Shown piece by piece: positions 3,045 through 57,822 of a stretch of DNA of 61,597 nt (positions are counted from its first letter, which is position 1; each line of letters starts with the position of its first letter). Made by a program: the position numbers and the translations under genes. The notes under the pieces are model-generated. The model was not told where the DNA came from, made no database searches, and saw nothing but the letters and a program-made list of their open reading frames with translations. The stretch comes from an uncultured Clostridia bacterium (lineage in GTDB: Bacteria > Bacillota > Clostridia > TANB77 > CAG-508), in assembly GCA_944391015.1 (NCBI GenBank), contig CALXRZ010000002.1, positions 1 to 61,597 of the forward strand. The letters are read 5' to 3'.

Positions 3045-3282
3045 AATAACCTCACATTTCAATTCTCACAAAATTGCACAAAACAATGCTTTGGTACAAT
3101 CTATGAGGACAAATTTATTTATGTTTTTAATTATATCACTTATATGCCTAATTGTGAAGATTATTAAGAATAATTATGACAATAAACAAATAGCTAGCAA
3201 ACTAAATTACTAGCTATACATTTGATATTGTTTTAGACAACAAAATTCTGAGGTACCTACTGCAATTTTTTATAGATGCCCC

Positions 3283-3744
3283 TTATTCATCATCTGAATC
3301 TATATATAAGTCATTAGTGTTTCTTTGTTTTATATATGCCCAAATTAAAATTCCTATAGCAAGGGCAGTAATACCTATAATAATCCAAGTCCAAGTATTT
3401 GTACTCATACCAGCAACAGTTACATCATCAGTAGCAGTTCTAGTGGCAGTGTAACCTCCACCATTATTATTATCTGTAGCTATTCCACCAGCCATAGAAT
3501 TTTCGGTATTGTTCATACCATTTTTTACATCAGATACAACATTCTGAGTACCTTGACCTACAGTGTTTATACCGTTTTTTATGCCTCCAGAAATTGTATT
3601 TCCTGCATCTTCAAGCATATTTTCGGCGCCACCAACCATATTTCTTACACCATTTGCAACATTATCCATCGCAAATACTGGTATAGAAATTGATATAAGT
3701 AATATAGCTATAATAGAAACTATTAAAAATCTTTTTTTCATCAT
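3283..3744 (-). CDS. Hypothetical secreted/anchored Asn-Gly-rich protein
   Basis: N-terminal signal-like helix, low-complexity N/G-rich middle, C-terminal TM helix; GGAGG RBS. Confidence 0.6.
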   Translation of the reverse strand: MMKKRFLIVSIIAILLISISIPVFAMDNVANGVRNMVGGAENMLEDAGNTISGGIKNGINTVGQGTQNVVSDVKNGMNNTENSMAGGIATDNNNGGGYTATRTATDDVTVAGMSTNTWTWIIIGITALAIGILIWAYIKQRNTNDLYIDSDDE

Positions 3745-3903
3745 AAACCTCCTTCAACTGAATATAAATTTTTATTCTAAATTTGCATTTAAAATAAAAG
3801 CTCTATTTATATTATTTCTTTTTTAAAATAAAATATACAAAAAAAGTCCAACTTTTAATATTAGTTGAACTTTTAAAATAAATTTTGAAATTATAAAAAA
3901 ATT

Positions 3904-4293
3904 TTAATTTTTTAATCTAATAAGTATTGCTATTGCAAGTAATATAAGAATAACTCCTACAGTAATTACTAAAATATTTAATACATTAGAAAAGCTCATA
4001 TTTTCCTGTGCTATACTACTTACTCCAGATGGTGCAACAGAACCACCAATATTATCTTGCTCAAAATTATCATCTGCTAAGGTGTCATTTGTATCTACAG
4101 TATTGGAATCTGTGATAGTATTTGAATCAACTGCATTTCCATTATCAGTAACACTGTTTGAGTCAGTTGCAGAATTTGTATCTGTTTGATTTTGGTTTTC
4201 TAAATTCATATTTATATCTGTAGCATAAACTAAAGTTGTAACAGAAAATAATATTATAACTAAAATAACTAAAGTTTTAAAAATTCTTGACAT
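3904..4293 (-). CDS. Hypothetical secreted/anchored Asp-Asn-Thr-rich protein
   Basis: Same architecture as 3283..3744: signal-like N-terminus, reiterated TDSN-type low complexity, C-terminal TM. Confidence 0.55.
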   Translation of the reverse strand: MSRIFKTLVILVIILFSVTTLVYATDINMNLENQNQTDTNSATDSNSVTDNGNAVDSNTITDSNTVDTNDTLADDNFEQDNIGGSVAPSGVSSIAQENMSFSNVLNILVITVGVILILLAIAILIRLKN

Positions 4294-4595: not shown

Positions 4596-6908
4596 ATGGA
4601 AAATTTAAAAGGTTTAACAAATGAAGAAGTAAAAGAAAGAATAGAAAAGGGGCAAGTAAACAGCTCAAATACAAATAATTTGAAATCAAACTGGCAAATT
4701 GTAAGAGACAATGTTTGTACATTGTTTAACTTATTCAATTTAATAATTGCAATTGCGCTAGCGTGTGTTCATGCATATACCAATATGGTATTTATTCTAA
4801 TTATTATTGTAAATGTGTTAATTGGAATAATTCAAGAAATTCACGGAAAAAATTTAGTAAAACAATTATCAATTTTAACAACAGCAAAAACAAAAGTTAT
4901 AAGAGATGGGGAAGAGAAGGAGATAAATATAAATGAAATAGTATTAGATGATGTGGTACTTTTATCACAAGGTGACCAAATTCCATCTGATTCAGTTGTA
5001 TTAGATGGAGAAGTAGAGGTTAATGAAGCACTTCTTACCGGTGAATCTGATACAATTTTAAAGAAAAAAGAGGACAAGCTTTTGTCTGGCAGTTATATAG
5101 TTAGTGGAAAATGTTATGCAAAAATAGAAAAAGTAGGAGACGACAACTTTGCAAACCAAATAATAAATGCTACTAAAAAGCATAAAAAAGTAAACTCAGA
5201 GCTTTTAAATTCAATGAAAAAAGTTACAAATTTTACAAGCTTTGTAATAATACCAGCTGGAGTAATCTTGTTTGTCCAAGCGTATATATTTAGAGAGGTA
5301 GATTTACAACAATCTGTAATAGCTACTGCAGCAGCACTTTTAGGTATGCTTCCAAAAGGCTTTGTATTACTTACAAGTATATCGCTTGAGACAGGTGTAA
5401 TAAAACTAGCCAAGAAACAAGTTTTGGTGCAAGATTTATATAGTGTAGAAACCTTAGCACACATAGATACTTTATGCTTAGACAAAACAGGAACTATAAC
5501 AGAAGGAAAAATGAAAGTTATAGATGTAGAAAAATACAACGAAGCTGTACTTCCAGATACATTAGAAAATATAATGAATTCATATGTAAATCTAACAGAT
5601 GATAGCAACAGTACATTTAATGCATTAAAAAATTATTTTAATGGTGAGTCAAAATACGAAAAACAAAGCGATATTTCTTTTTCATCTGAAAGAAAATGGA
5701 GCAGTGTTACTTTTAAAAACTTAGGAACAATTATAGTAGGTGCGCCAGAAAGATTATCTGCAATGGCAAATGTGGAGTTACCAAAAAGCATTGTAGAAGC
5801 TCAAGAAGATGGAAAAAGAGCTCTATGCATTGGATATACTAAAGAAGAAATTAGTGTTGAACAATTACCACATATAAGCTTAGTAGCAGGAATAATATTA
5901 GCAGACCCTCTAAGAAAAAATGCAAAAGAAATGCTTGGATATTTTAAAACACAATCAGTGGACATAAAAATTATATCTGGTGACAATCCAATAACTGTTT
6001 CAACAATTGCAAAAAGAGCAGGCTTAGAAGATTATGAATCATATATAGATTTATCAACACTTAAATCTGATGCAGAAATAGTAGATATAGTTGATAAATA
6101 TAGTATATTTGCAAGAGTATTGCCACAGCAAAAAAGTATAATAGTAAAAGCACTTCAAGCTAAAGGACATAGTGTAGCAATGACAGGAGATGGGGTAAAT
6201 GATGTAATTGCATTAAGAGAATCAGACCTAAGCATTACATTGCCAGAGGCAAATGACGCGGCAAAACAAGTATCACAAATAGTACTTCTAAACCAAGACT
6301 TTAGTGTATTAAAAGATGTACTAATGGAGGGAAGAAGAGTAGTAAACAACCTTACAAGTGTTGCAAGAATCTTCTTTATAAAAACAATATATTCAGTACT
6401 TCTATCGCTATTCTGTATAATAACAAATACTGCATTCCCATTTATACCAATACAAATAACACTAATAGACTTAGTAATAGAAGCATACACATCATTCTTC
6501 ATATCATTTGAACCAAATAATAAACCTGTAAAAGGAGTATTTTTGCACACCGTTCTGCGAAATGCAGCACCATTTGCAATAGTAATATTGCTTAACATCA
6601 TATTCTTAACATATATGGGACCAGTACTTGGAATAGCAGAAGGACCACTTGTAACAATAATGTACTTACTAATAGGCTTTGTAAGCATCTTAGCTGTTTT
6701 AGAAGTATGTATACCATTTAACAAATTACACGCATTCTTATTCAGCACAACATTTATAGGCTTCTTTGTAGCAGTATACTTGTTTAGAAGCATATTACAT
6801 ATATCAGATATAACAATGAATGAGTTAGGCATATTTGTTGTATTTGCAGTAATTAGTGCGATAGTGCTAACAATAAAGCAAAAGATATATAAGAAATTGG
6901 GATATTAG
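4596..6908 (+). CDS. Cation-transporting P-type (HAD) ATPase
   Basis: DKTGTITEG phosphorylation motif, TGES, MTGDGVNDVIAL hinge, multiple TM helices; start set at the ATG after GGAGG (residue 13 of the track ORF). Confidence 0.9.
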   Translation: MENLKGLTNEEVKERIEKGQVNSSNTNNLKSNWQIVRDNVCTLFNLFNLIIAIALACVHAYTNMVFILIIIVNVLIGIIQEIHGKNLVKQLSILTTAKTKVIRDGEEKEININEIVLDDVVLLSQGDQIPSDSVVLDGEVEVNEALLTGESDTILKKKEDKLLSGSYIVSGKCYAKIEKVGDDNFANQIINATKKHKKVNSELLNSMKKVTNFTSFVIIPAGVILFVQAYIFREVDLQQSVIATAAALLGMLPKGFVLLTSISLETGVIKLAKKQVLVQDLYSVETLAHIDTLCLDKTGTITEGKMKVIDVEKYNEAVLPDTLENIMNSYVNLTDDSNSTFNALKNYFNGESKYEKQSDISFSSERKWSSVTFKNLGTIIVGAPERLSAMANVELPKSIVEAQEDGKRALCIGYTKEEISVEQLPHISLVAGIILADPLRKNAKEMLGYFKTQSVDIKIISGDNPITVSTIAKRAGLEDYESYIDLSTLKSDAEIVDIVDKYSIFARVLPQQKSIIVKALQAKGHSVAMTGDGVNDVIALRESDLSITLPEANDAAKQVSQIVLLNQDFSVLKDVLMEGRRVVNNLTSVARIFFIKTIYSVLLSLFCIITNTAFPFIPIQITLIDLVIEAYTSFFISFEPNNKPVKGVFLHTVLRNAAPFAIVILLNIIFLTYMGPVLGIAEGPLVTIMYLLIGFVSILAVLEVCIPFNKLHAFLFSTTFIGFFVAVYLFRSILHISDITMNELGIFVVFAVISAIVLTIKQKIYKKLGY

Positions 6909-26891: not shown

Positions 26892-26918
26892 CAAAAGGGG
26901 ACGGGCTTAAATTGTAAA
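26888..26918 (+). repeat. ACGG-loop hairpin motif, copy b
   Basis: TTAGCAAAAGGGGACGGGCTTAAATTGTAAA; overlaps the acyltransferase stop; 48 nt before the pbp ATG. Confidence 0.8.
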
Positions 26919-29717: not shown

Positions 29718-29748
29718 TTTACAATTTAAGCCCGTCTCCAATTGCAAA
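29718..29748 (-). repeat. ACGG-loop hairpin motif, copy d
   Basis: Reverse complement TTTGCAATTGGAGACGGGCTTAAATTGTAAA; 5 nt after the recombinase stop, upstream of dpaB. Confidence 0.8.
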
Positions 29749-43863: not shown

Positions 43864-44790
43864 TTATACTCTAGGTCCTATAAATTTATCTCCGTTCAGA
43901 TGTATCATATGATCAGGCATTTCTGCTAACCATACTTCTGTTTCCCACGCTAAATCTTCTGCAAATTTCTTAAATGTCTTCATATCAAGAAAAGCTGTAA
44001 CATATATTTTTCCATATCCACAATTAGTTGTCATCTCACTTATTTCTACTAATCTTTTTGGACTAATCGGTCCGACACTCGTAACAGCTTCAATAAAATA
44101 AATCCATCTTTTTTCCTTTTCATACAGTATAACATCAGGCAATTTGTCGTGTTCACCCATCGAAATGTGCAATCTTTCTAAAATATCTTTGTCTTTATAT
44201 AGGTCTTTATCTTTTGTATCTCCAACATAAGCAACAATACTATTTGGAGCAAATCTAGGAGCAAATTCTTCTATAATTGCTTTTTGCAAATCATTATGTT
44301 TTCCTGGACTAAATTTAAATTCTTTACCATTAATTTTGATAGGAACTTTTATTAATTTTCTTTTATTTTCATAAATTTTTATTAATTTTTCATGTGTAGA
44401 CAAATATTTATTTAATTCTTCTTCCCAATTATTTGTTTTATAATTTCTTACTAATTTTAGTGCCTCTTCGGTGATTCTGTATCTATAGTTTGGACTATTC
44501 GTAGCTAATCCATTATCTTCTATTAATGCTGAAATTCTAAAATGGTGTAATGCCTGTTTTCTGAATGTTTCTCTACTGTTTTCAGCATATGTGATATTGT
44601 AGTTTTCTTTAATAAATTCAATTATATCATGTATTCTAATATACTCATTGGTTGCTTTACTCCATTCATCTTGATTTTTAATATTAAGTAAAGCTAATAA
44701 AGTATATGCACACAAGTCACTCTGTTGCTTTTTTGGCATTCCTACATCCATAAGTATTTGTCTAGCTTCTTCTATTTTACTCATTATCAA
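43864..44790 (-). CDS. Type II restriction endonuclease, BsuBI/PstI family
   Basis: LLALLN, SPGKHN, YVGDT, LPDVILY, EAVTSVGP, AWETEVW and HMIHLNGDKFIGP blocks match my recollection of the family. Confidence 0.7.
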   Translation of the reverse strand: MIMSKIEEARQILMDVGMPKKQQSDLCAYTLLALLNIKNQDEWSKATNEYIRIHDIIEFIKENYNITYAENSRETFRKQALHHFRISALIEDNGLATNSPNYRYRITEEALKLVRNYKTNNWEEELNKYLSTHEKLIKIYENKRKLIKVPIKINGKEFKFSPGKHNDLQKAIIEEFAPRFAPNSIVAYVGDTKDKDLYKDKDILERLHISMGEHDKLPDVILYEKEKRWIYFIEAVTSVGPISPKRLVEISEMTTNCGYGKIYVTAFLDMKTFKKFAEDLAWETEVWLAEMPDHMIHLNGDKFIGPRV

Positions 44791-46246
44791 TTACCTCCAT
44801 TAAAATATTATTACAATTATCTGATGATAAATCTTTATTTTCTCTTAAATATTTACCCATTTTTTTAATTTCATTTTCATTTGGTATTGGAATATTGTTT
44901 ACCTCAGTCGCATTTACTTGAGTAGAACCATTTAATATTCTATAATATTGATCATATAATGTACTATTATATAACACATATAATCCATATAATAAATCTT
45001 CTTGTATTTCACTATTATCAGAAGTGCAAATATAATTTATATGATTTTCTGTTGATATAAAATCATAATTATTAAATTGATTTTTCAAAAAAATTGCAGG
45101 CTGAACTCTTCTATTCTCTTCTTTACTGCTAAATCTTTTGATAAATAGATAATTCATATTTTTTTGTAATAAGGATGTATTATCTTTTTTTATATATTGA
45201 GGTTCTTCTAATTTACTCGGAAATTGTATTATACCATTTTTAAAGTGAATGGATGATAAAAGCGGTACATTATTACTATTTGCTTTTTTTTCGAGTGAAG
45301 ATTCATTTCTAAAATCTACCGTTAGTCCCGTTTTTAATTTTAATCCTAAATCATTTAATTTTGTATCAAATCTATTTATTGTTCTTAAAACCTTTATATC
45401 TTTTTCATTGGTTGGTAAATAAACATATCTTTCATCATTATTTTCAACACATAAATCGTAGTTAATTTCGTATTTATTTATTTTATTAAAATCAGAATTA
45501 CTATATGATTCGGTTATAATTACTTTTGGTGGAGTTTCTTTGCTTTTTATTGCTCTTAATATCATGGTCTCTTGTAATACATTTTCCCTACTAAACACTT
45601 TATCTCTACTTACAAATAAATGAATATTAGTTAATTTAACATTATCCAAAAATTTCTGCCTAAATTTTTTAAAATATGCTCCTGATGTCCACGATCTTGG
45701 TACAATAAAAATCATTTCTCCATCATCTTTTAAAACTCTTTCTGCCATTTCCATAAACAGAAAATATATATTAGGTTGTCCATAAACAACATCTTTCATT
45801 GCGATAGCTTCTTTAGAGTTTTTTCCTATCTTTTTGTATGGAGGATTACTAATTATAATATCATAAATTCTTTCTGTTGTATTTTCGTTGTGTAAAATAA
45901 AGTTGTCTTTTATAATTTTGATTTTTTTTAATTTAGTAATTGAATTCTTTACTCTTTGCATATTTTTTTCTAATATTAAAGCAATATTTTCATCATTTTC
46001 ATATAAATCAATTTCTATACTCTTGATATCTTGAATATTATTAAGCTTTTCAAGTAGAGCAATACTCAATATTCCTGTCCCTGCTCCTGCATCTAGTATT
46101 TTTATCTTTTCTTTATGCGACCTAGATAAATTTGCCATAAAAATAGCTGTTTCTTTTGAAGTAAAGAATTGTCCTATTTTCTTTCTCTCAACTTTTGATT
46201 TGGTGTTAATATATTTATCTGTAACATTAATAATTTCATCTATCAT
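44777..46246 (-). CDS. N6-adenine DNA methyltransferase (Eco57I/PstI-methylase-like)
   Basis: Motif I LDAGAGTGILS, motif IV SNPPY; 14-nt overlap with the endonuclease gene. Confidence 0.85.
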   Translation of the reverse strand: MIDEIINVTDKYINTKSKVERKKIGQFFTSKETAIFMANLSRSHKEKIKILDAGAGTGILSIALLEKLNNIQDIKSIEIDLYENDENIALILEKNMQRVKNSITKLKKIKIIKDNFILHNENTTERIYDIIISNPPYKKIGKNSKEAIAMKDVVYGQPNIYFLFMEMAERVLKDDGEMIFIVPRSWTSGAYFKKFRQKFLDNVKLTNIHLFVSRDKVFSRENVLQETMILRAIKSKETPPKVIITESYSNSDFNKINKYEINYDLCVENNDERYVYLPTNEKDIKVLRTINRFDTKLNDLGLKLKTGLTVDFRNESSLEKKANSNNVPLLSSIHFKNGIIQFPSKLEEPQYIKKDNTSLLQKNMNYLFIKRFSSKEENRRVQPAIFLKNQFNNYDFISTENHINYICTSDNSEIQEDLLYGLYVLYNSTLYDQYYRILNGSTQVNATEVNNIPIPNENEIKKMGKYLRENKDLSSDNCNNILMEVIDNE

Positions 46247-49294: not shown

Positions 49295-49467
49295 TATTTT
49301 TCTTCCTTCCTCAAGTTTAATTTTACTCTATTGCGATGTAGATTCATCACTATATTAGGTATCTAATTTAACCTAAATTATACTATGATACTATACCACT
49401 TTTTATATAAAACTGCAAGCTTTTTTAAAAGTTTACTATGACAAATAACTGAAACGTTACTATTTTA

Positions 49468-49617
49468 GCAAGCAATGTAAGTTTTAAATTTTTCTTTGAG
49501 TGCTTAAGGTGGGGACCAACAAGCTTACAAACTGTAAAATGAAGCTTTAGCTGAATTTTTTACAGTTTGTGCGATGTTGGGGGCCGAAAAGAAAAATTTA
49601 AAACTTACATTGTTTGC
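49468..49617. repeat. 150-nt imperfect palindrome upstream of secA
   Basis: 29-bp arms GCAAGCAATGTAAGTTTTAAATTTTTCTT / AAGAAAAATTTAAAACTTACATTGTTTGC (1 mismatch) plus inner arms ACAAACTGTAAAA / TTTTACAGTTTGT. Confidence 0.8.
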
Positions 49618-49670
49618 AATAAATTTATATCATAATTCTTCTGTTACTAACATACACATCTATTAAGAAT

Positions 49671-49702
49671 TTTCAGCAATGGGGACGGACTCATTTTGTA
49701 AA
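49671..49702 (+). repeat. ACGG-loop hairpin motif, copy e
   Basis: TTTCAGCAATGGGGACGGACTCATTTTGTAAA; 43 nt before the ATG at 49746. Confidence 0.7.
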
Positions 49703-49745
49703 TATCATATTGTCCCACTTTTAATATGAGAAGAGGTTTGTATAT

Positions 49746-50291
49746 ATGTTTATTTTTAATTTTAAAATCAATGGAAACAAAACTGCAAAAATATTTATGG
49801 CAATATTATGTATTATTGTTTTAATAATTACAGCTTTTATTTGCTACAAGGTTATTTTCAACAATTTTTTTAAAACAAATGATACGTATCTTTCAGAAAA
49901 TACGGTTTATACTATCGAGGCAAGAAATTACACAAATGTGCTTCAGCAAGTACACAATGATATTGATACTTATGTTGGTCAAAAAATAAAGTTTACAGGG
50001 TATGTTTACAGAATATATGATTTTACTGATGAGCAATTTGTATTGGCAAGAAATATGATAGTATCTTCAGATTTTCAAACTGTGGTTGTTGGCTTTTTGT
50101 GTCACTATAATTTAGCTAAAAATTTTGAAACAGGCTCTTGGGTAGAAATTGAGGGAACAATTACCAAAGGTAACTATTATGGAGATATGCCAATCATTGA
50201 AATAGAAGAGATTAAGCAAGTAGATGTACCAGATGAAGAGTATGTATATCCACCAGATGACAGTTTTGTTACTACTTCTACTGTGTTATAA
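49746..50291 (+). CDS. Hypothetical membrane-anchored protein (weak DUF1980/TIGR03943-like resemblance)
   Basis: N-terminal TM; the C-terminal domain pattern is only loosely reminiscent. Confidence 0.55.
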   Translation: MFIFNFKINGNKTAKIFMAILCIIVLIITAFICYKVIFNNFFKTNDTYLSENTVYTIEARNYTNVLQQVHNDIDTYVGQKIKFTGYVYRIYDFTDEQFVLARNMIVSSDFQTVVVGFLCHYNLAKNFETGSWVEIEGTITKGNYYGDMPIIEIEEIKQVDVPDEEYVYPPDDSFVTTSTVL

Positions 50292-50434
50292 GATTTATTT
50301 TAACTAACTAAAAAAGACCGTTACAGGTAGAAGCTTTTTTTAGCAGTCTATTGTAACAGTCCTTTTAGTTCAGAGTGATTTTCATAATTATTTACAATTT
50401 TTTATCTTAACAATTGATATAAACATTTATATAT

Positions 50435-50872
50435 TTATTTTTTTAATATACTGGTTATTTTATTCCATATTTTTTTAAACAATGATTGTTTATATTTAAC
50501 CATTGGTAATTCAATAACTTTTTCTTTTTTATCAGATTTGCTAAATAAATTATCTGGATTATACATTTCTCTTTTCATTAATTCATCTTGTATATCATTA
50601 TATTTTTCTTTTAACTTTATTTTATCTTTTTGCTCAGGTGTAGCCCAGTAATCTTTAAATAATATAGCTAAAATTATTTTTGTTTCCTCTAAAATAGGTT
50701 GCTTTTCAAAATTTGCTTCTGTAATTGTATACTCATAATTTATATCTTTATATTTTATAAACATATCTATCAATTTTGAGGGGATTTTTTTATATTCTTC
50801 AATACTTATATTGTTTAAAATTGTTAATGTTTCAGTATATGCTCGTGGTATATTATTAATGTCAACCATCAT
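50435..50872 (-). CDS. Hypothetical 145-aa protein, downstream partner of 50872..51753
   Basis: TAATG stop/start overlap; AAGGAGG RBS 7 nt upstream inside the preceding gene. Confidence 0.7.
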   Translation of the reverse strand: MMVDINNIPRAYTETLTILNNISIEEYKKIPSKLIDMFIKYKDINYEYTITEANFEKQPILEETKIILAILFKDYWATPEQKDKIKLKEKYNDIQDELMKREMYNPDNLFSKSDKKEKVIELPMVKYKQSLFKKIWNKITSILKK

Positions 50873-51753
50873 TATCTATCCTCCTTTTGAATTAGTTCAT
50901 TATACATTTTATCTAAATAATCGTTCAATATTTTTTCCATTACTCCTAGGTCATCATCTAATCTAGTTCCGAGAATAGTTACTTTACCAATTGATTGAGT
51001 AGAATATGCTGAAGATCTTTGTGGCAATTCTATTCCACTACATTGTTTTCTTACATCATTTTCATCTAATATTGGTAAATCAAGAGTATTAAAGTGGTTA
51101 ATTACATCCATAACGTCTAAATCGTCTTTCCCTAGCTTTGTTTTATAATAAACCTCTACCATTTTAGCTAACTCGCTATCAATTTTATTTTTAATTAGCT
51201 GTATTCTCTTCTCTCTAGCAAAAGAGTCTAATGACTCATCCTCCAATATTGTATTGAGTTGATTTAATAATTCATCAAAATCATTTGGCACCTCAATTCC
51301 AATTTTTGATAAAACAGCAAGTGCACTTTTAGCAATAGGTACAATACTTTCATATGCTGGTTTTCCTAGAATCGATAATTGACTAATTTTCTTTTTACGT
51401 ATATTTGAATTTACTATAATTCCTGATATTCGATTTTTTGGTATCTCATCAAACACAAATGCTTCATCAGGATAACCAGAATCGTGATTTGTTTCGCTAG
51501 CTAATGTATATGAAACGTTTCTTATGTAAAAAGATATTCCTCCATCCATTATATATACTCTTAATGCACCAAAATTATCTTTATGTGGTATAGCAACTGA
51601 AATATTATTTTGCCCATTATAACACCACGTACCATTTACTTCAAATCCATCTATCTTATTACCTTTGTTTGCTGAAAGTATACCTGTATTCATTATGCTT
51701 TCATATCTCAATAAATTTTCTCCAATACCGTGATAGCAAAAACCATTACTCAT
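50872..51753 (-). CDS. Hypothetical 293-aa protein with ADP-ribosyltransferase-like sequence patterns (speculative)
   Basis: Start set at the ATG after GAGGAGG (residue 11 of the track ORF); N-terminal FCYHGIGENLLRYESIMNTGIL and later DEAFVFDEIPKNRISGIIV. Confidence 0.65.
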   Translation of the reverse strand: MSNGFCYHGIGENLLRYESIMNTGILSANKGNKIDGFEVNGTWCYNGQNNISVAIPHKDNFGALRVYIMDGGISFYIRNVSYTLASETNHDSGYPDEAFVFDEIPKNRISGIIVNSNIRKKKISQLSILGKPAYESIVPIAKSALAVLSKIGIEVPNDFDELLNQLNTILEDESLDSFAREKRIQLIKNKIDSELAKMVEVYYKTKLGKDDLDVMDVINHFNTLDLPILDENDVRKQCSGIELPQRSSAYSTQSIGKVTILGTRLDDDLGVMEKILNDYLDKMYNELIQKEDR

Positions 51754-51816
51754 AAAAATATATACCTCCTCTATACGATACATAATATATCATAGTATAT
51801 ATTTTTTTGCAACCAT

Positions 51817-51847
51817 TTTACAATTTAAGCCCGTCCCCTTTTGCAAA
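51817..51847 (-). repeat. ACGG-loop hairpin motif, copy f
   Basis: Reverse complement identical to copy b over 29 nt; 1 nt after the ytvI-like stop. Confidence 0.8.
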
Positions 51848-51848
51848 T

Positions 51849-52944
51849 TTATCTCTCTAATATAGATTTAACAACTCCTTTATCAATTATTGTTCCATAT
51901 ATGTTTTTTAGTATTATTAGTACTATTGGTCCAAAGAGTAAGCCCCACACTCCTATAAATTTAAAGCCTGTATACATTGCAATTAGTGTAAATATAGGAT
52001 GTATTCCGATACTACCACTAACTATTTTAGGTTCAACAAATTGTCTAACTATACTCATTACGCACCATAATGCAAAAATACCTATTGCTAATTTTAAATC
52101 TCCCGAAAAAGCCAAAATTACTGTCCAAGGTATCATTACAGTTCCAGAGCCGAATATAGGTAAGGCATCAACAAAGGCAATTCCGAATTGCAATTAGCAA
52201 AGGGAACTCTATATTCCAACCTAAAAAGTAAAAAATGTATAATCCTACTAATGAAATGAAGAATGATATTACTACTAATGTTAACTCTGCTTTTAAATAT
52301 CCACCTAATGTTTTTATTAAGGCACGTAAATGCACACCTATTCTTTTTACCCACGTTTCCGGCAAATGATGCTCTAATTGATCAATCATATATATTTTGT
52401 CTACACACATAAAATATAGTGCTATTAAAGTAATTACTGTATATATTCCAAGAGTTGGCATTGAGGTTATAAATTCTATTGTTTTGGTTAGTACTCCTTT
52501 TATCCAGTCTGTTACAGTATCTAAAAATTCAAGGCCAGAATTTTGAACTATATCCATTACCTCTTGTGGAATATTAAATTTACTTAAGTCTATACTTGAA
52601 ACAATGTTTTGAAAAATTTGACTTCCAGTATCTATATACACATTTATATTTGACATTAAATTAGATGTTTCTGTAACTAAAGTGGTAATTATCCAAATTA
52701 AAATACCTACGATTATTGCTATGGCTATAATAAAAATAATTATTGAACTTGTTCTTCTACTTAGCTTTACTTTTTTCATCAGTAACCTAATAATTGGTTC
52801 TAATAGCAAAGATATGACAAATGCAACTAAAAAAGGCATATAGAATACGGCTAATTTGAAAGCTAAATACACTACAACAATGCTTAAAACTAGTATAAAA
52901 ATATTTTTTATTATTTTATTTAAGTGGTTCATATCTACTACCAT
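51849..52944 (-). pseudogene. ytvI: AI-2E/PerM-family transporter (YtvI-like) split by a 1-nt frameshift
   Basis: Track ORFs 52168..52944 and 51849..52193 are the N- and C-terminal parts of one permease; removing the base at about 52185 gives ...PLLIAIGIAFVDALPIFGSG... Confidence 0.7.
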
Positions 52945-53095
52945 TATGTATTACTCCTTTGTTTTATAACTTGTCCTTTATTATATTTTATGCTTTTAAT
53001 TAAAATTTATTCATTTACCAGTTGTTTGGAACTGCATAAGTAGTTTTGTAAAATTATTTTAAGCTAGTACAAGAATGTTAAACAAACTAGGGAGA

Positions 53096-53470
53096 GATGC
53101 CTAAAAAAGCTAGCACACAGGTTTTCAAAAAAATTTCTGATTGTCCTGAATTATTTCAGTTAGCAGAGGTGTGTCTAAAAAAATAGTATGAAAAGATGGA
53201 ATTGAAAGTGACTTGAGCATACAAATACTAAGAAAATTTTGGTAGGGAATCTCGCACACTTGTGAGGGCGCTACCAAAATTTCTCATAGTATTTGTGCTA
53301 AACTCAGCTTGAACGACAGATTTTCATACTATTTTTTTAGACATATCTCTGCTAATTTTTTAAGCATTCTATTCCAAGTTTTTAGACATACCCCTGCTAA
53401 TTTTTTAAGCATTATATCCTAAGTTTCTAGACACACTGTGACACATACTGTGCTAGCTTTTTTAGGCATC
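53096..53470. repeat. 375-bp three-layer nested palindrome with an internal 45-bp tandem duplication
   Basis: Outer arms GATGCCTAAAAAAGCTAGCACA / TGTGCTAGCTTTTTTAGGCATC; middle arms related to the 8821/60976 cores; centre GAAAATTTTGGTAG / CTACCAAAATTTC; tandem units 53334..53378 and 53379..53423. Confidence 0.85.
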
Positions 53471-53569
53471 CTGCATTAAGCTTTTTAGAGACTTTTGTAC
53501 TAGAATACAAAAAACATTTTAAAAAACTATTTATTTTAAGTTCATATTACAAAGTATAGCAATCCAATT

Positions 53570-54007
53570 CTATTCAGCATTCTTCTTATCGCAGTCACAA
53601 ATATTTTCTAAAGTTGCATAAATTCCTTCTGGGTTTATTTCTTTGTTTTTTGCTAAATCTCCCAATGTTAGTATACCCACTATTTTGTTGTTTTCCATTA
53701 CAGGTATTCTTCTAACTTGGTTTGTTCCCATCATTTTTTCTGCATCGTTTACTTCTTGATCTGGAGTACAGCAAGTTACATTGCAAGTCATAATATCACT
53801 AACTGGCGTGTGCTTTATTTCTTTTCCACACCCAATTGTTCTTAGTAAAATATCTCTATCAGTTACTAAACCAACAACTTTTTTAGAGTCATCGCAAACT
53901 GGTATACATCCTATATGATTTTGACACATTAGTTTTGCACACTCTTCTGTATCGCAATCAGGCTTAACAAATACCACTTCTTTACACATACAATCTTTAA
54001 CTTTCAT
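53570..54007 (-). CDS. CBS-domain pair protein
   Basis: Two CBS repeats (IGCIPVCDD..VVGLVTDRDIL; VRRIPVMENNKIVGILTLGDL). Confidence 0.8.
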   Translation of the reverse strand: MKVKDCMCKEVVFVKPDCDTEECAKLMCQNHIGCIPVCDDSKKVVGLVTDRDILLRTIGCGKEIKHTPVSDIMTCNVTCCTPDQEVNDAEKMMGTNQVRRIPVMENNKIVGILTLGDLAKNKEINPEGIYATLENICDCDKKNAE

Positions 54008-54178
54008 TTTTTAATCACTCCTTATTTAAAACTTTAATGCTCAGATTTTAAATTTTCTAAGCTTTTTTTCAAACGTGCATATTTGCAAAAAAATGCACAT
54101 AAAATGAAGCTTCTTATCATATTATTGACTAAAAAAATAAAGATATGCAATTTAATATTACATATCTTGGAAATTTTT

Positions 54179-56452
54179 TCATTTTTTTAATTTTATGCTT
54201 TTTGCTAATGTTATTGTCACAATTAACGACATCACAAATAGCATTAGTATAAATAGGCAAATGCTTACAAGTGGTATTTGTAACTTTTCTAGTACAATAA
54301 TATTTTGCATAGATTTTACAATTATATATATTATTGGTATAGATATAATTATTGAAATAATTGTTGCTTTTGAAAACATATAAATATCTTCATATAAAAG
54401 AATGTTTTTAATATTCTTTTTCTGTGCACCTATATCACTTATTATTTTAAATTCTTGTTTTCTTTCACTTAAACTTGCATTTAAAATATTTACTGTGCTT
54501 ATAATTCCTATAATAATTATTGCAAGCAATATAGAATTTAACATTAGTTTTATAATATTTATATAAATTATTTTTTCCTGATTATCTAATGTATAATATG
54601 TAGCATCTATTTCAATATTTTGTTTTTGCTTAATATTCTCTATATAATTTGAAAATCCTATAATATTATCACATTTTATTCTTGCATAAGTAGCATCCAC
54701 ATCAGACCATATAAATTTTGTAATTTGATAGTTATTTGATAAATTATATTTTTCTACATCACTGTTTATTGATTGTAACATATCCATATTAACAAAAATA
54801 ATTGGTGCTTGATATTTTGTTGTAAAATCACTAAATTCTTCAAGCAAATGGTCTGTTAGAATTATGTTATTTTTTAGAGTATTACAATTTACTTTTTGGT
54901 ATTTATAATCCACACTATCTGTCATATAATTTGTTGCAATTAGACTAATTTGCAAATTATAATCTTCTTTAAAGGCTTTTTTAGAATAGTATGTTGTCGT
55001 AAAATCATCATTGATTTCGGCAATTGTTTTGTTGTTATAAATTATAATATCACCATAGATTCCTCCAGCTTTTTCAATATAATCCCTATACACTGTATCT
55101 TCCAAGCCAATAACTACCATATTTTCACTTTTTTTGCCATCATCATATGTGTCACTTGAATTTGTTAGTATAGCTTCTGTAGGTTCAATTAAAAAATTTA
55201 GCCCTGTCATTTTATATTCTATATATTTTAGATTATCACTATACTCTTTCTCATAATTACTTAGAATAGTTTTATAATCTATGTTTTGCTCAGTGTCAAC
55301 AGAAATTTGAGCATCCACTTTATATTTATCTACTAAACTTTCAGTTACTTCTTCATATTTAATGTAAGTGTTTACTGTTATATATGATGTTATGCATACT
55401 ACAAGAAGTATTATAATAGTTCTGTATTTATTTCGGTTTCTTTTTGCATCTCGTAATGCTAATTTTCCCTCTATTGGAAGAATTTTTTCTAAAAAGCTAT
55501 TTTTTCTTTTATATTTTATTTGTTTATTATTTCGAATATTTTGCATTATAGAAGTTGAGCTTGCTTTTACACTTGGTATTATTGATGAAATATATATGTT
55601 TATAATTATAATTACAAGTGATAGTAGTATATATTTTGCGTCTATGTATAAAGTAAATGTAAAACCAGAATTAAGCATAATGTTATTTAATTGATGTAAC
55701 AATACACTACTGAAAATTATGGAAAGCATTCCACCTATAATAATGCCTATTATCCCAATAATACATTCTTCTATGAAAATCATTTTTAGTATTTGTTTTT
55801 CTGTGCTACCAACACTTCTTAATACTGCATAATCTTTTTTTCGCTCATTTATGGTTATTAAAAATGCATTATAAAGTATTATTATAAACAATATTGAAAA
55901 TACTACTAAAACTAGCACTATTAGTAAGTCTACAATATATGAATAATTAGCTTGCATAGTACAAATAAGATTACCATTTATTCCAACACCAATTAAACCA
56001 TACATTGTTAGTAATTTTTCATTAAATTCTACTTTATTTGAAGCTTCTCGTACGTTGATGAATAGAGTGTTAACTATATCTGTAGAGTTTTTACATACAT
56101 CTTTTACATCGGTGTATTTTATAAATATGTTAAAGTTTTGAGCCGAATTTATAAAATACGGCTTCTCTAAAGTTTGTAATTCTCCATCATCAGTATATTG
56201 TATATATATTTTTTCTATAAAATCTTTATCTTTTATTTTATTAAAGTCGTTTGTACTAATATTTCTTATTATAATCTGATAGTCATTATACTCTGTTTCT
56301 AAACCACTTGTTATTCCTTTTTTTAGACTTGATATTACTAAAATTGTAGTGAATAATAGTGTAGTACATAATATAATTGAGATGATTGTATATATAGCTC
56401 TTTTATAATTTTTTTGTATATTGGCGGTCGCTAATTTGGTTTCTATTTTCAT
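54179..56452 (-). CDS. FtsX-like ABC transporter permease, no adjacent ATPase gene
   Basis: 757 aa, two blocks of TM helices separated by large external domains; typical N-terminus (ANIQKNYKRAIYTI). Confidence 0.7.
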   Translation of the reverse strand: MKIETKLATANIQKNYKRAIYTIISIILCTTLLFTTILVISSLKKGITSGLETEYNDYQIIIRNISTNDFNKIKDKDFIEKIYIQYTDDGELQTLEKPYFINSAQNFNIFIKYTDVKDVCKNSTDIVNTLFINVREASNKVEFNEKLLTMYGLIGVGINGNLICTMQANYSYIVDLLIVLVLVVFSILFIIILYNAFLITINERKKDYAVLRSVGSTEKQILKMIFIEECIIGIIGIIIGGMLSIIFSSVLLHQLNNIMLNSGFTFTLYIDAKYILLSLVIIIINIYISSIIPSVKASSTSIMQNIRNNKQIKYKRKNSFLEKILPIEGKLALRDAKRNRNKYRTIIILLVVCITSYITVNTYIKYEEVTESLVDKYKVDAQISVDTEQNIDYKTILSNYEKEYSDNLKYIEYKMTGLNFLIEPTEAILTNSSDTYDDGKKSENMVVIGLEDTVYRDYIEKAGGIYGDIIIYNNKTIAEINDDFTTTYYSKKAFKEDYNLQISLIATNYMTDSVDYKYQKVNCNTLKNNIILTDHLLEEFSDFTTKYQAPIIFVNMDMLQSINSDVEKYNLSNNYQITKFIWSDVDATYARIKCDNIIGFSNYIENIKQKQNIEIDATYYTLDNQEKIIYINIIKLMLNSILLAIIIIGIISTVNILNASLSERKQEFKIISDIGAQKKNIKNILLYEDIYMFSKATIISIIISIPIIYIIVKSMQNIIVLEKLQIPLVSICLFILMLFVMSLIVTITLAKSIKLKK

Positions 56453-56587
56453 TTGTTACTCCTTTTTTTGGATTAAAAATTAAATAAAAGGAAAGTTCAG
56501 AATCTGAACTTTCCCTAAAAACAAGGTAAATGTGTGAATTTAATTACAAATTAGAATTCAATAAACAGTATTAAACTATTTATGATT

Positions 56588-57043
56588 TTAGTTTGTAAAA
56601 TACAAGTCTACATCATATGGAGAGCCAGATGCAACTAAGTGGACTGATACTTCGTAATCTCCTGCAGGAAGTTTCGAAGTCCACGTCATAGACTTCAATT
56701 CATTATTAGCTGTAGCAGATATGTCTCGTACTTCTCCAGTACTCATATTTGTAAGCCTTATAATGACTCGTCCACTAGAATTAGTCCTTCCTACAGTCCA
56801 AGATACCGTCTTTGCACCTAAAGGCAGTTTAAATGTTCCCAAAACCTTGCCTTGGGTCAATTTTCCTGTGTAATGGTACTGCGCTACAAGACTAGTTGCA
56901 GCACGAGAAACGGCACTCATATCGCTATACTTAATTGCTTCATTGCCATCAAGACAATTAGGTTCAGCTGCAAATGCAGGAACACTAAAGCATACCAACA
57001 TCACAGCTAGCAAAGATACCAAAGCGACTTTAAAACGTTTCAT
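56588..57043 (-). CDS. Hypothetical secreted protein in a GC-richer islet
   Basis: Signal peptide ending PAFAAEP; a sampled line is about 43% GC. Confidence 0.6.
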   Translation of the reverse strand: MKRFKVALVSLLAVMLVCFSVPAFAAEPNCLDGNEAIKYSDMSAVSRAATSLVAQYHYTGKLTQGKVLGTFKLPLGAKTVSWTVGRTNSSGRVIIRLTNMSTGEVRDISATANNELKSMTWTSKLPAGDYEVSVHLVASGSPYDVDLYFTN

Positions 57044-57198
57044 CCTAAAAGTATACCTCCCTTAAAAGCCTTGAATCACACATTTACGCCCGTCTTTATC
57101 AATATTAACCATTGATGTTTATATAATAATATTTTTTTTTCAATTTGTCAATACTTTTTTCTACATTTATTTAACTCTTTCATTTTTTTGTGTACTTG

Positions 57199-57822
57199 TT
57201 AGACTTTTGTTTTAATAAAATTAGTCTTTATAGTTTCCTCATAAGCTGGTCTTGGTAAATTAGCTTTTTCCATACATTTTAAAATATAGGCCATATTTTT
57301 TCCTATATTTCTCATTGTTTGTAGTCCTTCTAGGTCTTGCATTGCTTCTTCCTTGTTGTTTCCGTGTATTTGATTCCAATATGAACTACCTACAACATAC
57401 ATATTGTTTATAAGTGGATATTTATTTAGTTGGTCGAATGTAGCAGTTGCTCCTCCACGTCTACAACTTGCAACTGAGCTACATACTTTGCCTGTAAAGT
57501 ATTTTCCACCAGCATAAAATGCTCTATCTAAAAATGAAGTAATAGCCCCTGAAGCTGATGCGAAATGTACAGGTGAGCCCAAAACAAAACCATCAGCTTC
57601 CTTGGCTTTATCTAAGAATTCATTTACCACATCATCTTCAAAACATCTATTATTTGTTTTTCTGCACTTTCCACAGCCTATGCAACCACGAATTGGTTCG
57701 TTTCCAAGCCATAATATTTCTGTTTCAATATTTTCCTTATTTAGTTCTTTTGCAATTTCTTCCAAAGCTAAATTTGTAGCACCATCTTTATGTGGTCCTC
57801 CGTTAACTAAAATTACTTTCAT
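57199..57822 (-). CDS. Flavodoxin-like FMN reductase / iron-sulfur flavoprotein
   Basis: MKVILVNGGPHKDG N-terminus, CIGCGKC cysteine cluster. Confidence 0.7.
   Translation of the reverse strand: MKVILVNGGPHKDGATNLALEEIAKELNKENIETEILWLGNEPIRGCIGCGKCRKTNNRCFEDDVVNEFLDKAKEADGFVLGSPVHFASASGAITSFLDRAFYAGGKYFTGKVCSSVASCRRGGATATFDQLNKYPLINNMYVVGSSYWNQIHGNNKEEAMQDLEGLQTMRNIGKNMAYILKCMEKANLPRPAYEETIKTNFIKTKV

Follow-up and report, generated by a model that had tools for sequence, protein, structure and literature searches.

DarT enzymes are the model case of reversible ADP-ribosylation of DNA bases and have roles in phage defence and growth control. In DarT2-DarG systems (Thermus, Mycobacterium, Thermosipho; PDB 7OMW, 7OMU, 7YK3), the first gene encodes the ADP-ribosyltransferase (ART), which has a full His-Tyr-Glu (H-Y-E) triad, and the second a macrodomain antitoxin; in the DarT1-NADAR system of Escherichia coli C7 (PDB 8BAQ, Pfam family PF14487), the transferase gene is followed, after a gap of 3 nucleotides (nt), by that of a NADAR hydrolase. 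Residue roles have been described for DarT1, among them those of the catalytic Glu152 and of a Ser (S63) at the position of the H-Y-E class Tyr, and the system is accessory and strain-variable in its location (PMC11543638). Here we describe two overlapping genes, A and B, in a stretch of 61,597 nt from an uncultured Clostridia bacterium (contig CALXRZ010000002.1, assembly GCA_944391015.1; this whole stretch is called the window below). Structure models and profile comparisons make it very likely that the N-terminal ~125 residues of protein A form a minimal ART fold whose closest described relative is DarT, and B, a helical protein, turns up as the downstream neighbour of many proteins besides A.

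An earlier note, made from the letters of the window alone, had recognised no family for either protein, and scans of Pfam, NCBIfam, PADLOC and PHROG were indeed empty for both, the lone hint being a sub-threshold DarT match at residues 87-126 of A (E = 0.12). A word-indexed search returned 40 homologues of A, none of them annotated, and in a profile search of 1.84 billion representatives the family comprised 287 clusters at 50% identity (E <= 1e-3). The family is undescribed; its members, mostly 250-300 amino acids (aa) long, come from gut, rumen and oral Firmicutes, Saccharibacteria and Muribaculaceae, in metagenome-assembled genomes of Clostridia, Holdemanella, Erysipelotrichaceae, Saccharibacteria and Muribaculaceae. 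The AlphaFold2 model of A (pLDDT 82.4) has an alpha/beta domain at residues 4-128, then helices to ~240, as the earlier note had supposed for the C-terminal part, and a poorly predicted tail, of which residues 248-293 are both low in confidence and variable. Throughout the family the ART-like domain is succeeded by the helical domain, and profile matches from the wider family reach ~position 235 of A. Foldseek gave no convincing structural analogue of the helical domain, and the full-length A profile returned nothing but coiled-coil noise from PDB sequences. An N-terminal HD domain is present on about 11 of 61 sampled relatives, and one relative carries leucine-rich repeat and transglutaminase-like domains. 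The HD-fused proteins (P0158, P0163, P0166, P0175, P0181 and others) are ~500 aa long, with the HD phosphohydrolase placed ahead of the ART-like and helical parts.

The His and Glu motifs in which the earlier note had seen an ART are borne out by four independent, weak-to-moderate lines of evidence that lead to an ART fold and to DarT in particular. In a Foldseek search of the A model against the PDB, the top ranks were held mostly by ART proteins (E 0.014-0.09, probabilities 0.84-0.96), namely DarT (7omw, 8baq, 7omv and 7omx, from Thermus DarT and E. coli DarT1), cholera toxin A and yeast Tpt1 (7yw4); the split beta-sheet core of the ART superfamily is recognisable by structure comparison, at modest E-values. 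Against BFVD the best matches were uncharacterised phage proteins (E 1.5e-4, probability 1.0), in a list that also includes one annotated phage DarT and a putative tRNA 2'-phosphotransferase (Tpt1). In Pfam scans of 45 A-family domains one by one (E <= 10), DarT (PF14487) was the sole family matched by more than one of them (7/45, best E 0.01). A profile of the A domain ranked the DarT chains 7omu and 8baq first and second among 177,635 distinct PDB sequences, and scored 15.4 bits against full-length E. coli C7 DarT1, where the maximum in 5000 shuffles was 9.3 (p < 2e-4). This shuffle test was used in place of hhalign against the single DarT1 sequence, an attempt at a multi-sequence DarT profile having yielded too few homologues: a DarT1 fragment used as query found no match in plasmids or phages, and a later homologue search gave two fragments only.

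In the shuffle-tested alignment, Glu97 of A (PDEAFVFDEIP) falls on the catalytic Glu152 (QAEILVFEKIP), both within a shared E-x-[LF]-V-F-[ED]-x-I-P pattern, and the helix motif S-I-[LM]-x-x-G-I-L-S of the A family aligns with T-S-I-L-D-N-G-L-M-S of DarT1 (S-I-[LM]-x-x-G-[IL]-x-S in common). The strand-1 His stands ahead of this helix in both; the distance from it to the invariant helix-1 Gly is 16 residues for His8 and 14 in DarT1. Among the representatives that cover each position, His8 is conserved in 133/135, Ser52 in 125/138 and Glu97 in 135/143; the AlphaFold2 model has strands at residues 5-11, 50-54, 72-78, 97-101 and 109-114, and helices at 14-23 and 63-69. Of the three residues of the H-Y-E (ARTD) class, to which the earlier note had likened A, two are in place, His8 on strand 1 and Glu97 on strand 5. 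The middle Tyr, expected on strand 2, is replaced by Ser52, which sits in an I-S-V strand; a Ser here agrees with DarT1 and not with diphtheria toxin or PARP.

Several observations weigh against a tie to DarT as close as this. Full-length A scores 12.5 bits and its domain 14.8 against the Pfam DarT model, whose gathering threshold is 22.5, and none of the seven A-family domains that match it passes the cut-off; A is not a Pfam DarT member as that family is defined. Every single similarity to DarT lies below conventional significance (PDB profile E 0.19-0.64, Foldseek PDB E at least 0.014), and hhalign of the A profile with DarT1 as a single sequence reached a probability of 32%, over 26 columns. 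The HMM alignment is two residues out of register at Ser52 and DarT1 Ser63, and because of this shift their equivalence is no better than probable. From strand 2 to the Glu there are 45 residues in A versus 89 in DarT1; with this stretch half as long, the substrate-binding loop, and thus the target, may differ. As a yardstick, a bona fide DarT1 sequence used with phmmer misses Thermus and mycobacterial DarT2 altogether and finds Thermosipho DarT at no better than E 7e-4.

An ART fold, which A would share with DarT1, is its top structural and sequence match. As in DarT1-NADAR, the enzyme gene comes first and the partner next, with an overlap in A-B versus the gap in E. coli C7, and the location is accessory and strain-variable; unlike DarT1, A has no equivalents of Arg52 and Asp54 in the alignment and bears an extra helical C-terminus of ~165 residues. 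The partner differs too, B being a helical protein of non-enzymatic appearance where DarT1 has a NADAR hydrolase, and many A relatives have no partner. DarT2-DarG supplies the best Foldseek and PDB profile matches and the same transferase-first order, whereas neither its full H-Y-E triad nor its macrodomain antitoxin is found in A-B. Neither a macrodomain nor a NADAR eraser gene adjoins the pair.

The AlphaFold2 model of B (pLDDT 82.5) is all-helical and consists of a helical bundle (residues 5-103), a disordered linker that opens with YNPDNLF (104-110), and an amphipathic helix (131-143). In the B alignment, Y104 and F110 are invariant and N105-L109 are at least 90% conserved. B has 61 homologues and a further 236 relatives in a metagenome contig collection. 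It has no sequence match in the PDB, no structural analogue there (best Foldseek E 4.2) and no DNA-binding fold; the checks that the earlier note had proposed, profile searches and AlphaFold2 with Foldseek, favour an ART fold for A and give no analogue for B. Going by its model, B is neither a macrodomain nor NADAR, because that model is helical and without structural analogue and because B has no Pfam match. We take both A and B to be real genes, since each has homologues and a confident AlphaFold2 model. A 252-aa protein on a 1085-bp ENA contig (P0050) joins the N-terminus of a family-4 uracil-DNA glycosylase (PF03167) to the C-terminal half of a B relative; as it is known from this single contig, we treat the fusion as probably an assembly chimera or a recent rearrangement.

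A and B are one translationally coupled unit within a strain-variable block. The two open reading frames (ORFs) of the earlier note are present where it had placed them, on the minus strand, and its reading of the junction can be followed directly in the sequence: in TAATG, the final base of A's TAA is the first base of B's ATG, and AAGGAGG lies 7 nt 5' of that ATG, inside gene A. Two small, overlapping, co-transcribed genes with an internal ribosome-binding site are what a type II toxin/antitoxin pair would have. Gene A has its own GAGGAGG (51771..51765), 11 nt 5' of its ATG; a longer A ORF could start at 51783, and all homologues begin at the Met equivalent to that of MSNGF.

The linkage of A to B is real and far from general. 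The arrangement of A followed by B recurs in five lineages (the window strains, L005-7, L014-16, L023-25), with identities of A down to ~46%, and in L005 the B relative is shortened to 96 aa with A intact. Other A relatives, at 28-48% identity, have no B and keep the His/Ser/Glu residues; such relatives occur in Saccharibacteria, in Muribaculaceae, in Erysipelotrichaceae and in a single Clostridia clade, B is missing at L008-L013 and L017-L022, and no macrodomain or NADAR was found near distant A relatives in the neighbourhoods examined. The linkage of homologues to a small partner, on which the earlier note had staked its proposal, is therefore found in five lineages and missing in many A relatives. 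In L023, the A-B pair is flanked on one side by a 237-aa protein containing a PemK/MazF-like toxin domain (3238-3951, minus strand) and on the other by a class I methyltransferase (5487-6251, plus strand), which hints a second time at surroundings of toxin or accessory genes.

The B family leads a wider life of its own. In the best 80 of the 236 metagenome loci, the B relative is preceded in ~66 by a co-directional ORF of 100 aa or more, with a gap of no more than 41 nt in ~61, and where the upstream sequence suffices nearly every B gene sits in tight linkage behind the gene of a larger protein. B is not an antitoxin or immunity protein dedicated to A: an A relative is in that position in 0/80 loci. 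The proteins found there fall into ~20 unrelated clusters, which include Suv3-like DEAD helicases, a GHKL ATPase (HATPase_c_3), HD and transglutaminase-like proteins and many without a Pfam match; neither a C-terminal domain common to B's partners nor A's own C-terminal domain in them gave a significant match. When 32 B-associated proteins were scanned with PADLOC-DB 2.0, two helicases alone were hit, by generic helicase models. The sampled neighbours of B relatives include relaxases, type IV secretion system (T4SS) coupling proteins, TnpV, RepA_N and Endonuclease_NS_2, though a minority only match mobile-element families. On one integrative element a TraG-like coupling protein is succeeded by a 258-aa protein and this in turn by a B relative, and on a conjugative transposon with recombinase, TnpV, PrgI and TraG genes another B relative follows a 620-aa DEAD helicase.

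One family that precedes B (L026:4202-4978, L042:3186-3962, L041:3139-3963, L039:2470-3963) opens with FHF[TS]...SI..KGL...V[YF]FS[KQ]G, resembling the DarT1 N-terminus FHFTHSDNLTSILDNGL. Its 258-aa member in L026 was considered as a DarT-like protein on account of this FHFT...SI..KGL motif and was rejected, profile and shuffle tests being non-significant. That B pairs with more than one ART-like family may be so, as an unverified lead from the motif.

The pair itself varies between close relatives of the window. Of 24 contigs with an identical DUF1980 protein, the downstream neighbour of B, 15 have the cassette and 9 lack it; in these 9, DUF1980 runs straight into a different FtsX/ABC/two-component module. 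By blastn, the DNA of cassette-less strains (L033-L036) is 97-99.9% identical to the window up to 50296 and unalignable from there on, and in every case this breakpoint lies five bases past the DUF1980 stop. A sister lineage (L001-L004) is colinear with the window, and in it the block 49727-54195, with DUF1980, B, A, a broken ytvI and CBS, is 96.5% identical versus 81-91% for the flanks, which suggests that the block was recently exchanged. The GC content of the cassette region is not distinctive.

If A is a DarT-like ART that uses NAD+ and B its exchangeable partner, the two would form an accessory module exchanged by recombination, the best-supported reading and one to which models and sequence comparisons lead us to give roughly even chances. 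A would bind NAD+ and transfer ADP-ribose to a macromolecule, by analogy with DarT most likely a nucleic acid, with His8 holding the NAD+ and Glu97 serving as the catalytic base. B would bind A through its helical N-terminal domain and control or localise it through YNPDNLF and the C-terminal amphipathic helix, as a generic, exchangeable regulator or adaptor and not as an enzyme that reverses the modification. The cassette would then be a conflict-type accessory module swapped by recombination and not a housekeeping operon. An extension that we put forward tentatively, as a possibility, is that B is a promiscuous partner module of gut Firmicutes mobile elements, coupled to and controlling or targeting at least 20 unrelated enzyme families, among them a DarT-like ART clade that is free of erasers (no macrodomain or NADAR).

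The conflict side of this module reading has several points against it. No relative of A or B was found in IMG/VR, no PADLOC-DB 2.0 protein model for known anti-phage defence matches either protein, and many A relatives are orphans in ordinary-looking contexts, between housekeeping genes. The two grounds for a defence or conflict role are strain variability and the mobile-element neighbours of B relatives. A phage origin, which was also considered, is not supported, given the empty IMG/VR search. Nor does the pair resemble a polymorphic toxin with its immunity protein: the ART domain starts at residue 4 and B pairs with ~20 unrelated families.

The toxin/immunity or toxin/antitoxin pairing that the earlier note suggested is weakened by the company that B keeps. 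In its classic, DarTG-style form, A would be a growth-arresting, ADP-ribosylating toxin and B its cognate, directly binding antitoxin (type II-like), and the pair would protect against phages or stabilise the locus. The toxin-first order of darT-darG and darT1-NADAR, here tightened to a one-base overlap, the DarT-like catalytic residues of A, the strain-variable site beside a restriction-modification system and the linkage of A and B in five lineages all fit such a pair. Promiscuous antitoxin families also exist, for example the Panacea/PanA domain. B recalls Panacea in that one small family is tightly linked to many unrelated partners, but has no sequence or fold relation to it and counts large helicases and ATPases among its partners. 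A type II toxin gene would not be kept without its antitoxin, whereas A relatives at 28-48% identity retain His/Ser/Glu with neither B nor a de-ADP-ribosylase beside them, and the truncated L005 partner stands next to an intact A. B, moreover, lacks a macrodomain, NADAR or DNA-binding fold, and its relatives also follow helicases and ATPases of 600-1100 aa, which would be atypical toxins. Because of the orphan A relatives, the truncated L005 B and the pairing of B with large helicases and ATPases, we regard the DarTG-type model as unlikely.

The mobile-element neighbours suggest another way to read B, as an adaptor for the cargo enzymes of conjugative elements, acting as a tether to the membrane or secretion channel, as a chaperone, or as a link, made by YNPDNLF, to a host hub such as the sliding clamp. 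A would then be one such cargo, for instance an anti-defence or establishment enzyme that acts on DNA, and the chromosomal A-B pair a recombined remnant. B relatives do lie right after diverse nucleic-acid enzymes, near T4SS coupling proteins, relaxases, TnpV, recombinase, PrgI and RepA_N; the disordered linker of B contains a short linear motif that is conserved, and the protein ends in an amphipathic helix; and a TraG-like gene is found ~1.2 kb downstream of one A relative (P0036), with genes for DnaB_2 and IstB beyond it. We nevertheless think this improbable: no conjugation gene was found near the cassette in the examined part of the window, mobile-element families account for no more than a minority of the sampled B neighbours, and what the motif and the helix would do is conjecture.

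A third possibility would remove toxicity altogether and make A a processing or regulatory enzyme dependent on NAD+, for RNA end repair of the Tpt1/KptA kind or for modification of a small molecule, with B an accessory subunit gained in one clade. Tpt1 is among the structural matches of A and has a minimal ART domain of similar size in both fold searches, and KptA begins with a similar H-G...S-I...G-[IL]. The orphan relatives between housekeeping genes would suit such a role, as might the HD fusions, if the HD phosphohydrolase could process an ADP-ribose derivative; KptA-Nudix fusions offer an analogy (PMC9503650). The catalytic residues of A argue otherwise. A keeps the conserved Glu97, has Tyr/Phe before His8 and no Arg beside it where the tetrad of Tpt1 would need one, and has no match to Pfam PTS_2-RNA. 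Tpt1 works with an Arg-His-Arg-Arg tetrad and no catalytic Glu. The distribution of A is in addition patchy and strain-variable, and we see poor prospects for this alternative. That the resemblance to ARTs is a coincidence, the domain being an unrelated alpha/beta fold and the pair having some other function, is very improbable, for although no similarity passes a standard threshold and TM-scores are low (0.2-0.46), four methods independently pick the same rare family from very large libraries and the conserved residues occupy the catalytic positions of ARTs, in the expected order.

Table 1. Coordinates of the cassette, of its parts and of features around it (positions in the window).
Feature	Position	Strand	Remarks
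Gene A	50872..51753	-	293 aa, starting MSNGFCYHG...; unannotated; ART-like N-terminal and helical C-terminal domains
ART-fold domain of A	51370..51744	-	residues 4-128; His8 on strand 1, Ser52 on strand 2, Asp96-Glu97 on strand 5 (predicted)
Helical domain of A	51040..51354	-	residues ~134-238 (model DSSP and pLDDT); conserved in the family at large
Gene B	50435..50872	-	145 aa; helical N-terminal domain, YNPDNLF, linker, amphipathic helix
Coupling signals	50870..50886	-	AAGGAGG 50886..50880, 7-nt spacer, ATG of B 50872..50870, TAA of A 50874..50872
Gene A leader	51754..51852	-	GAGGAGG; promoter-like hexamers 51823..51784; core of motif copy f 51838..51826; directly after the ytvI stop (51849)
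Frameshifted ytvI-like (AI-2E transporter) gene	51849..52944	-	two overlapping ORFs, 52944..52168 and 52193..51849
Convergent intergenic region	50292..50434	.	between the DUF1980 gene (+) and gene B (-); strain breakpoint 50296
Motif cores	1841-1853, 26897-26909, 29727-29739, 49681-49693, 51826-51838	+, +, -, +, -	intergenic

Upstream of A and on the same strand, the ytvI-like gene (Table 1) is indeed broken, as the earlier note had it: its pieces, ORFs of 258 and 95/114 aa, each match PF01594, and because the identical split recurs in at least 5 independent assemblies we regard the frameshift as real. On the other side, B converges on a DUF1980_C/TIGR03943 gene (49746-50291, plus strand), with secA beyond it. 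Matches to promoter-like hexamers in the leader of gene A are not commoner than in shuffles, no tRNA was found near the cassette, and an Rfam scan gave no family.

The inverted hairpin-motif copies that the earlier note took to bracket the cassette are present, with cores at 49681-49693 (+) and 51826-51838 (-), each pointing the same way as the genes beside it, and are neither specific to the cassette nor stable hairpins. The core GGGGACGGRCTYA occurs five times in the window versus 0.29 expected, inside a 34-nt consensus AATTTGCAAAAGGGGACGGGCTTAAATTGTAAAA with the dyad TTTRCAA-N17-TTGYAAA. Four copies begin 5-22 nt past the stop of a co-directional gene, and four lie 53-73 nt ahead of the next co-directional start; the genes downstream encode a class B penicillin-binding protein, dipicolinate synthase B, DUF1980 and A, while the copy at 1841 is 207 nt before the gene for a small membrane protein. 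No stable RNA hairpin is predicted from the motif (z-scores -1.0, +0.95 and -0.1). It is a generic intergenic repeat that, lacking such a hairpin, may serve as an operator or as a processing element. We rejected the inverted copies as ends of the cassette on the grounds of five oriented copies, no stable fold and two convergent transcription units.

The surroundings of the block vary as well. At 43864-46246, left of secA, the window has a BsuBI/PstI-type restriction enzyme and an N6-methyltransferase, in place of which near-identical strains have RhuM-like or other genes; since both these genes and the cassette vary, secA-DUF1980 is a conserved island between two variable regions. On the far side, an FtsX-type permease (757 aa) and an ABC fragment (54196-57212) form an extra segment of ~3 kb that is missing from the otherwise colinear L001-L004. 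The module that adjoins DUF1980 in cassette-less strains consists of a different FtsX (828 aa), ABC, a histidine kinase and a response regulator. Within the island, the divergent secA-DUF1980 intergenic region contains a near-perfect palindrome (49463-49622) with 35-nt arms, 91% complementary, around a 90-nt spacer that itself holds an inverted repeat; it has no Rfam match, and the spacing of the region differs between strains.

A third, deeply divergent DarT-like clade would widen the uses and the control of DNA ADP-ribosylation chemistry, and this one would be distinctive in its other partner logic, its shortened substrate loop and its fusions to HD phosphohydrolases. More may hang on the B family, which abounds in gut metagenomes, is without annotation or structural analogue and is often found on conjugative elements; its function, once known, would annotate hundreds of blank gene pairs together. 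If B is a promiscuous partner in the sense proposed above, this would amount to a new organising principle for conflict and cargo genes, together with a new family of nucleic-acid-modifying ARTs.

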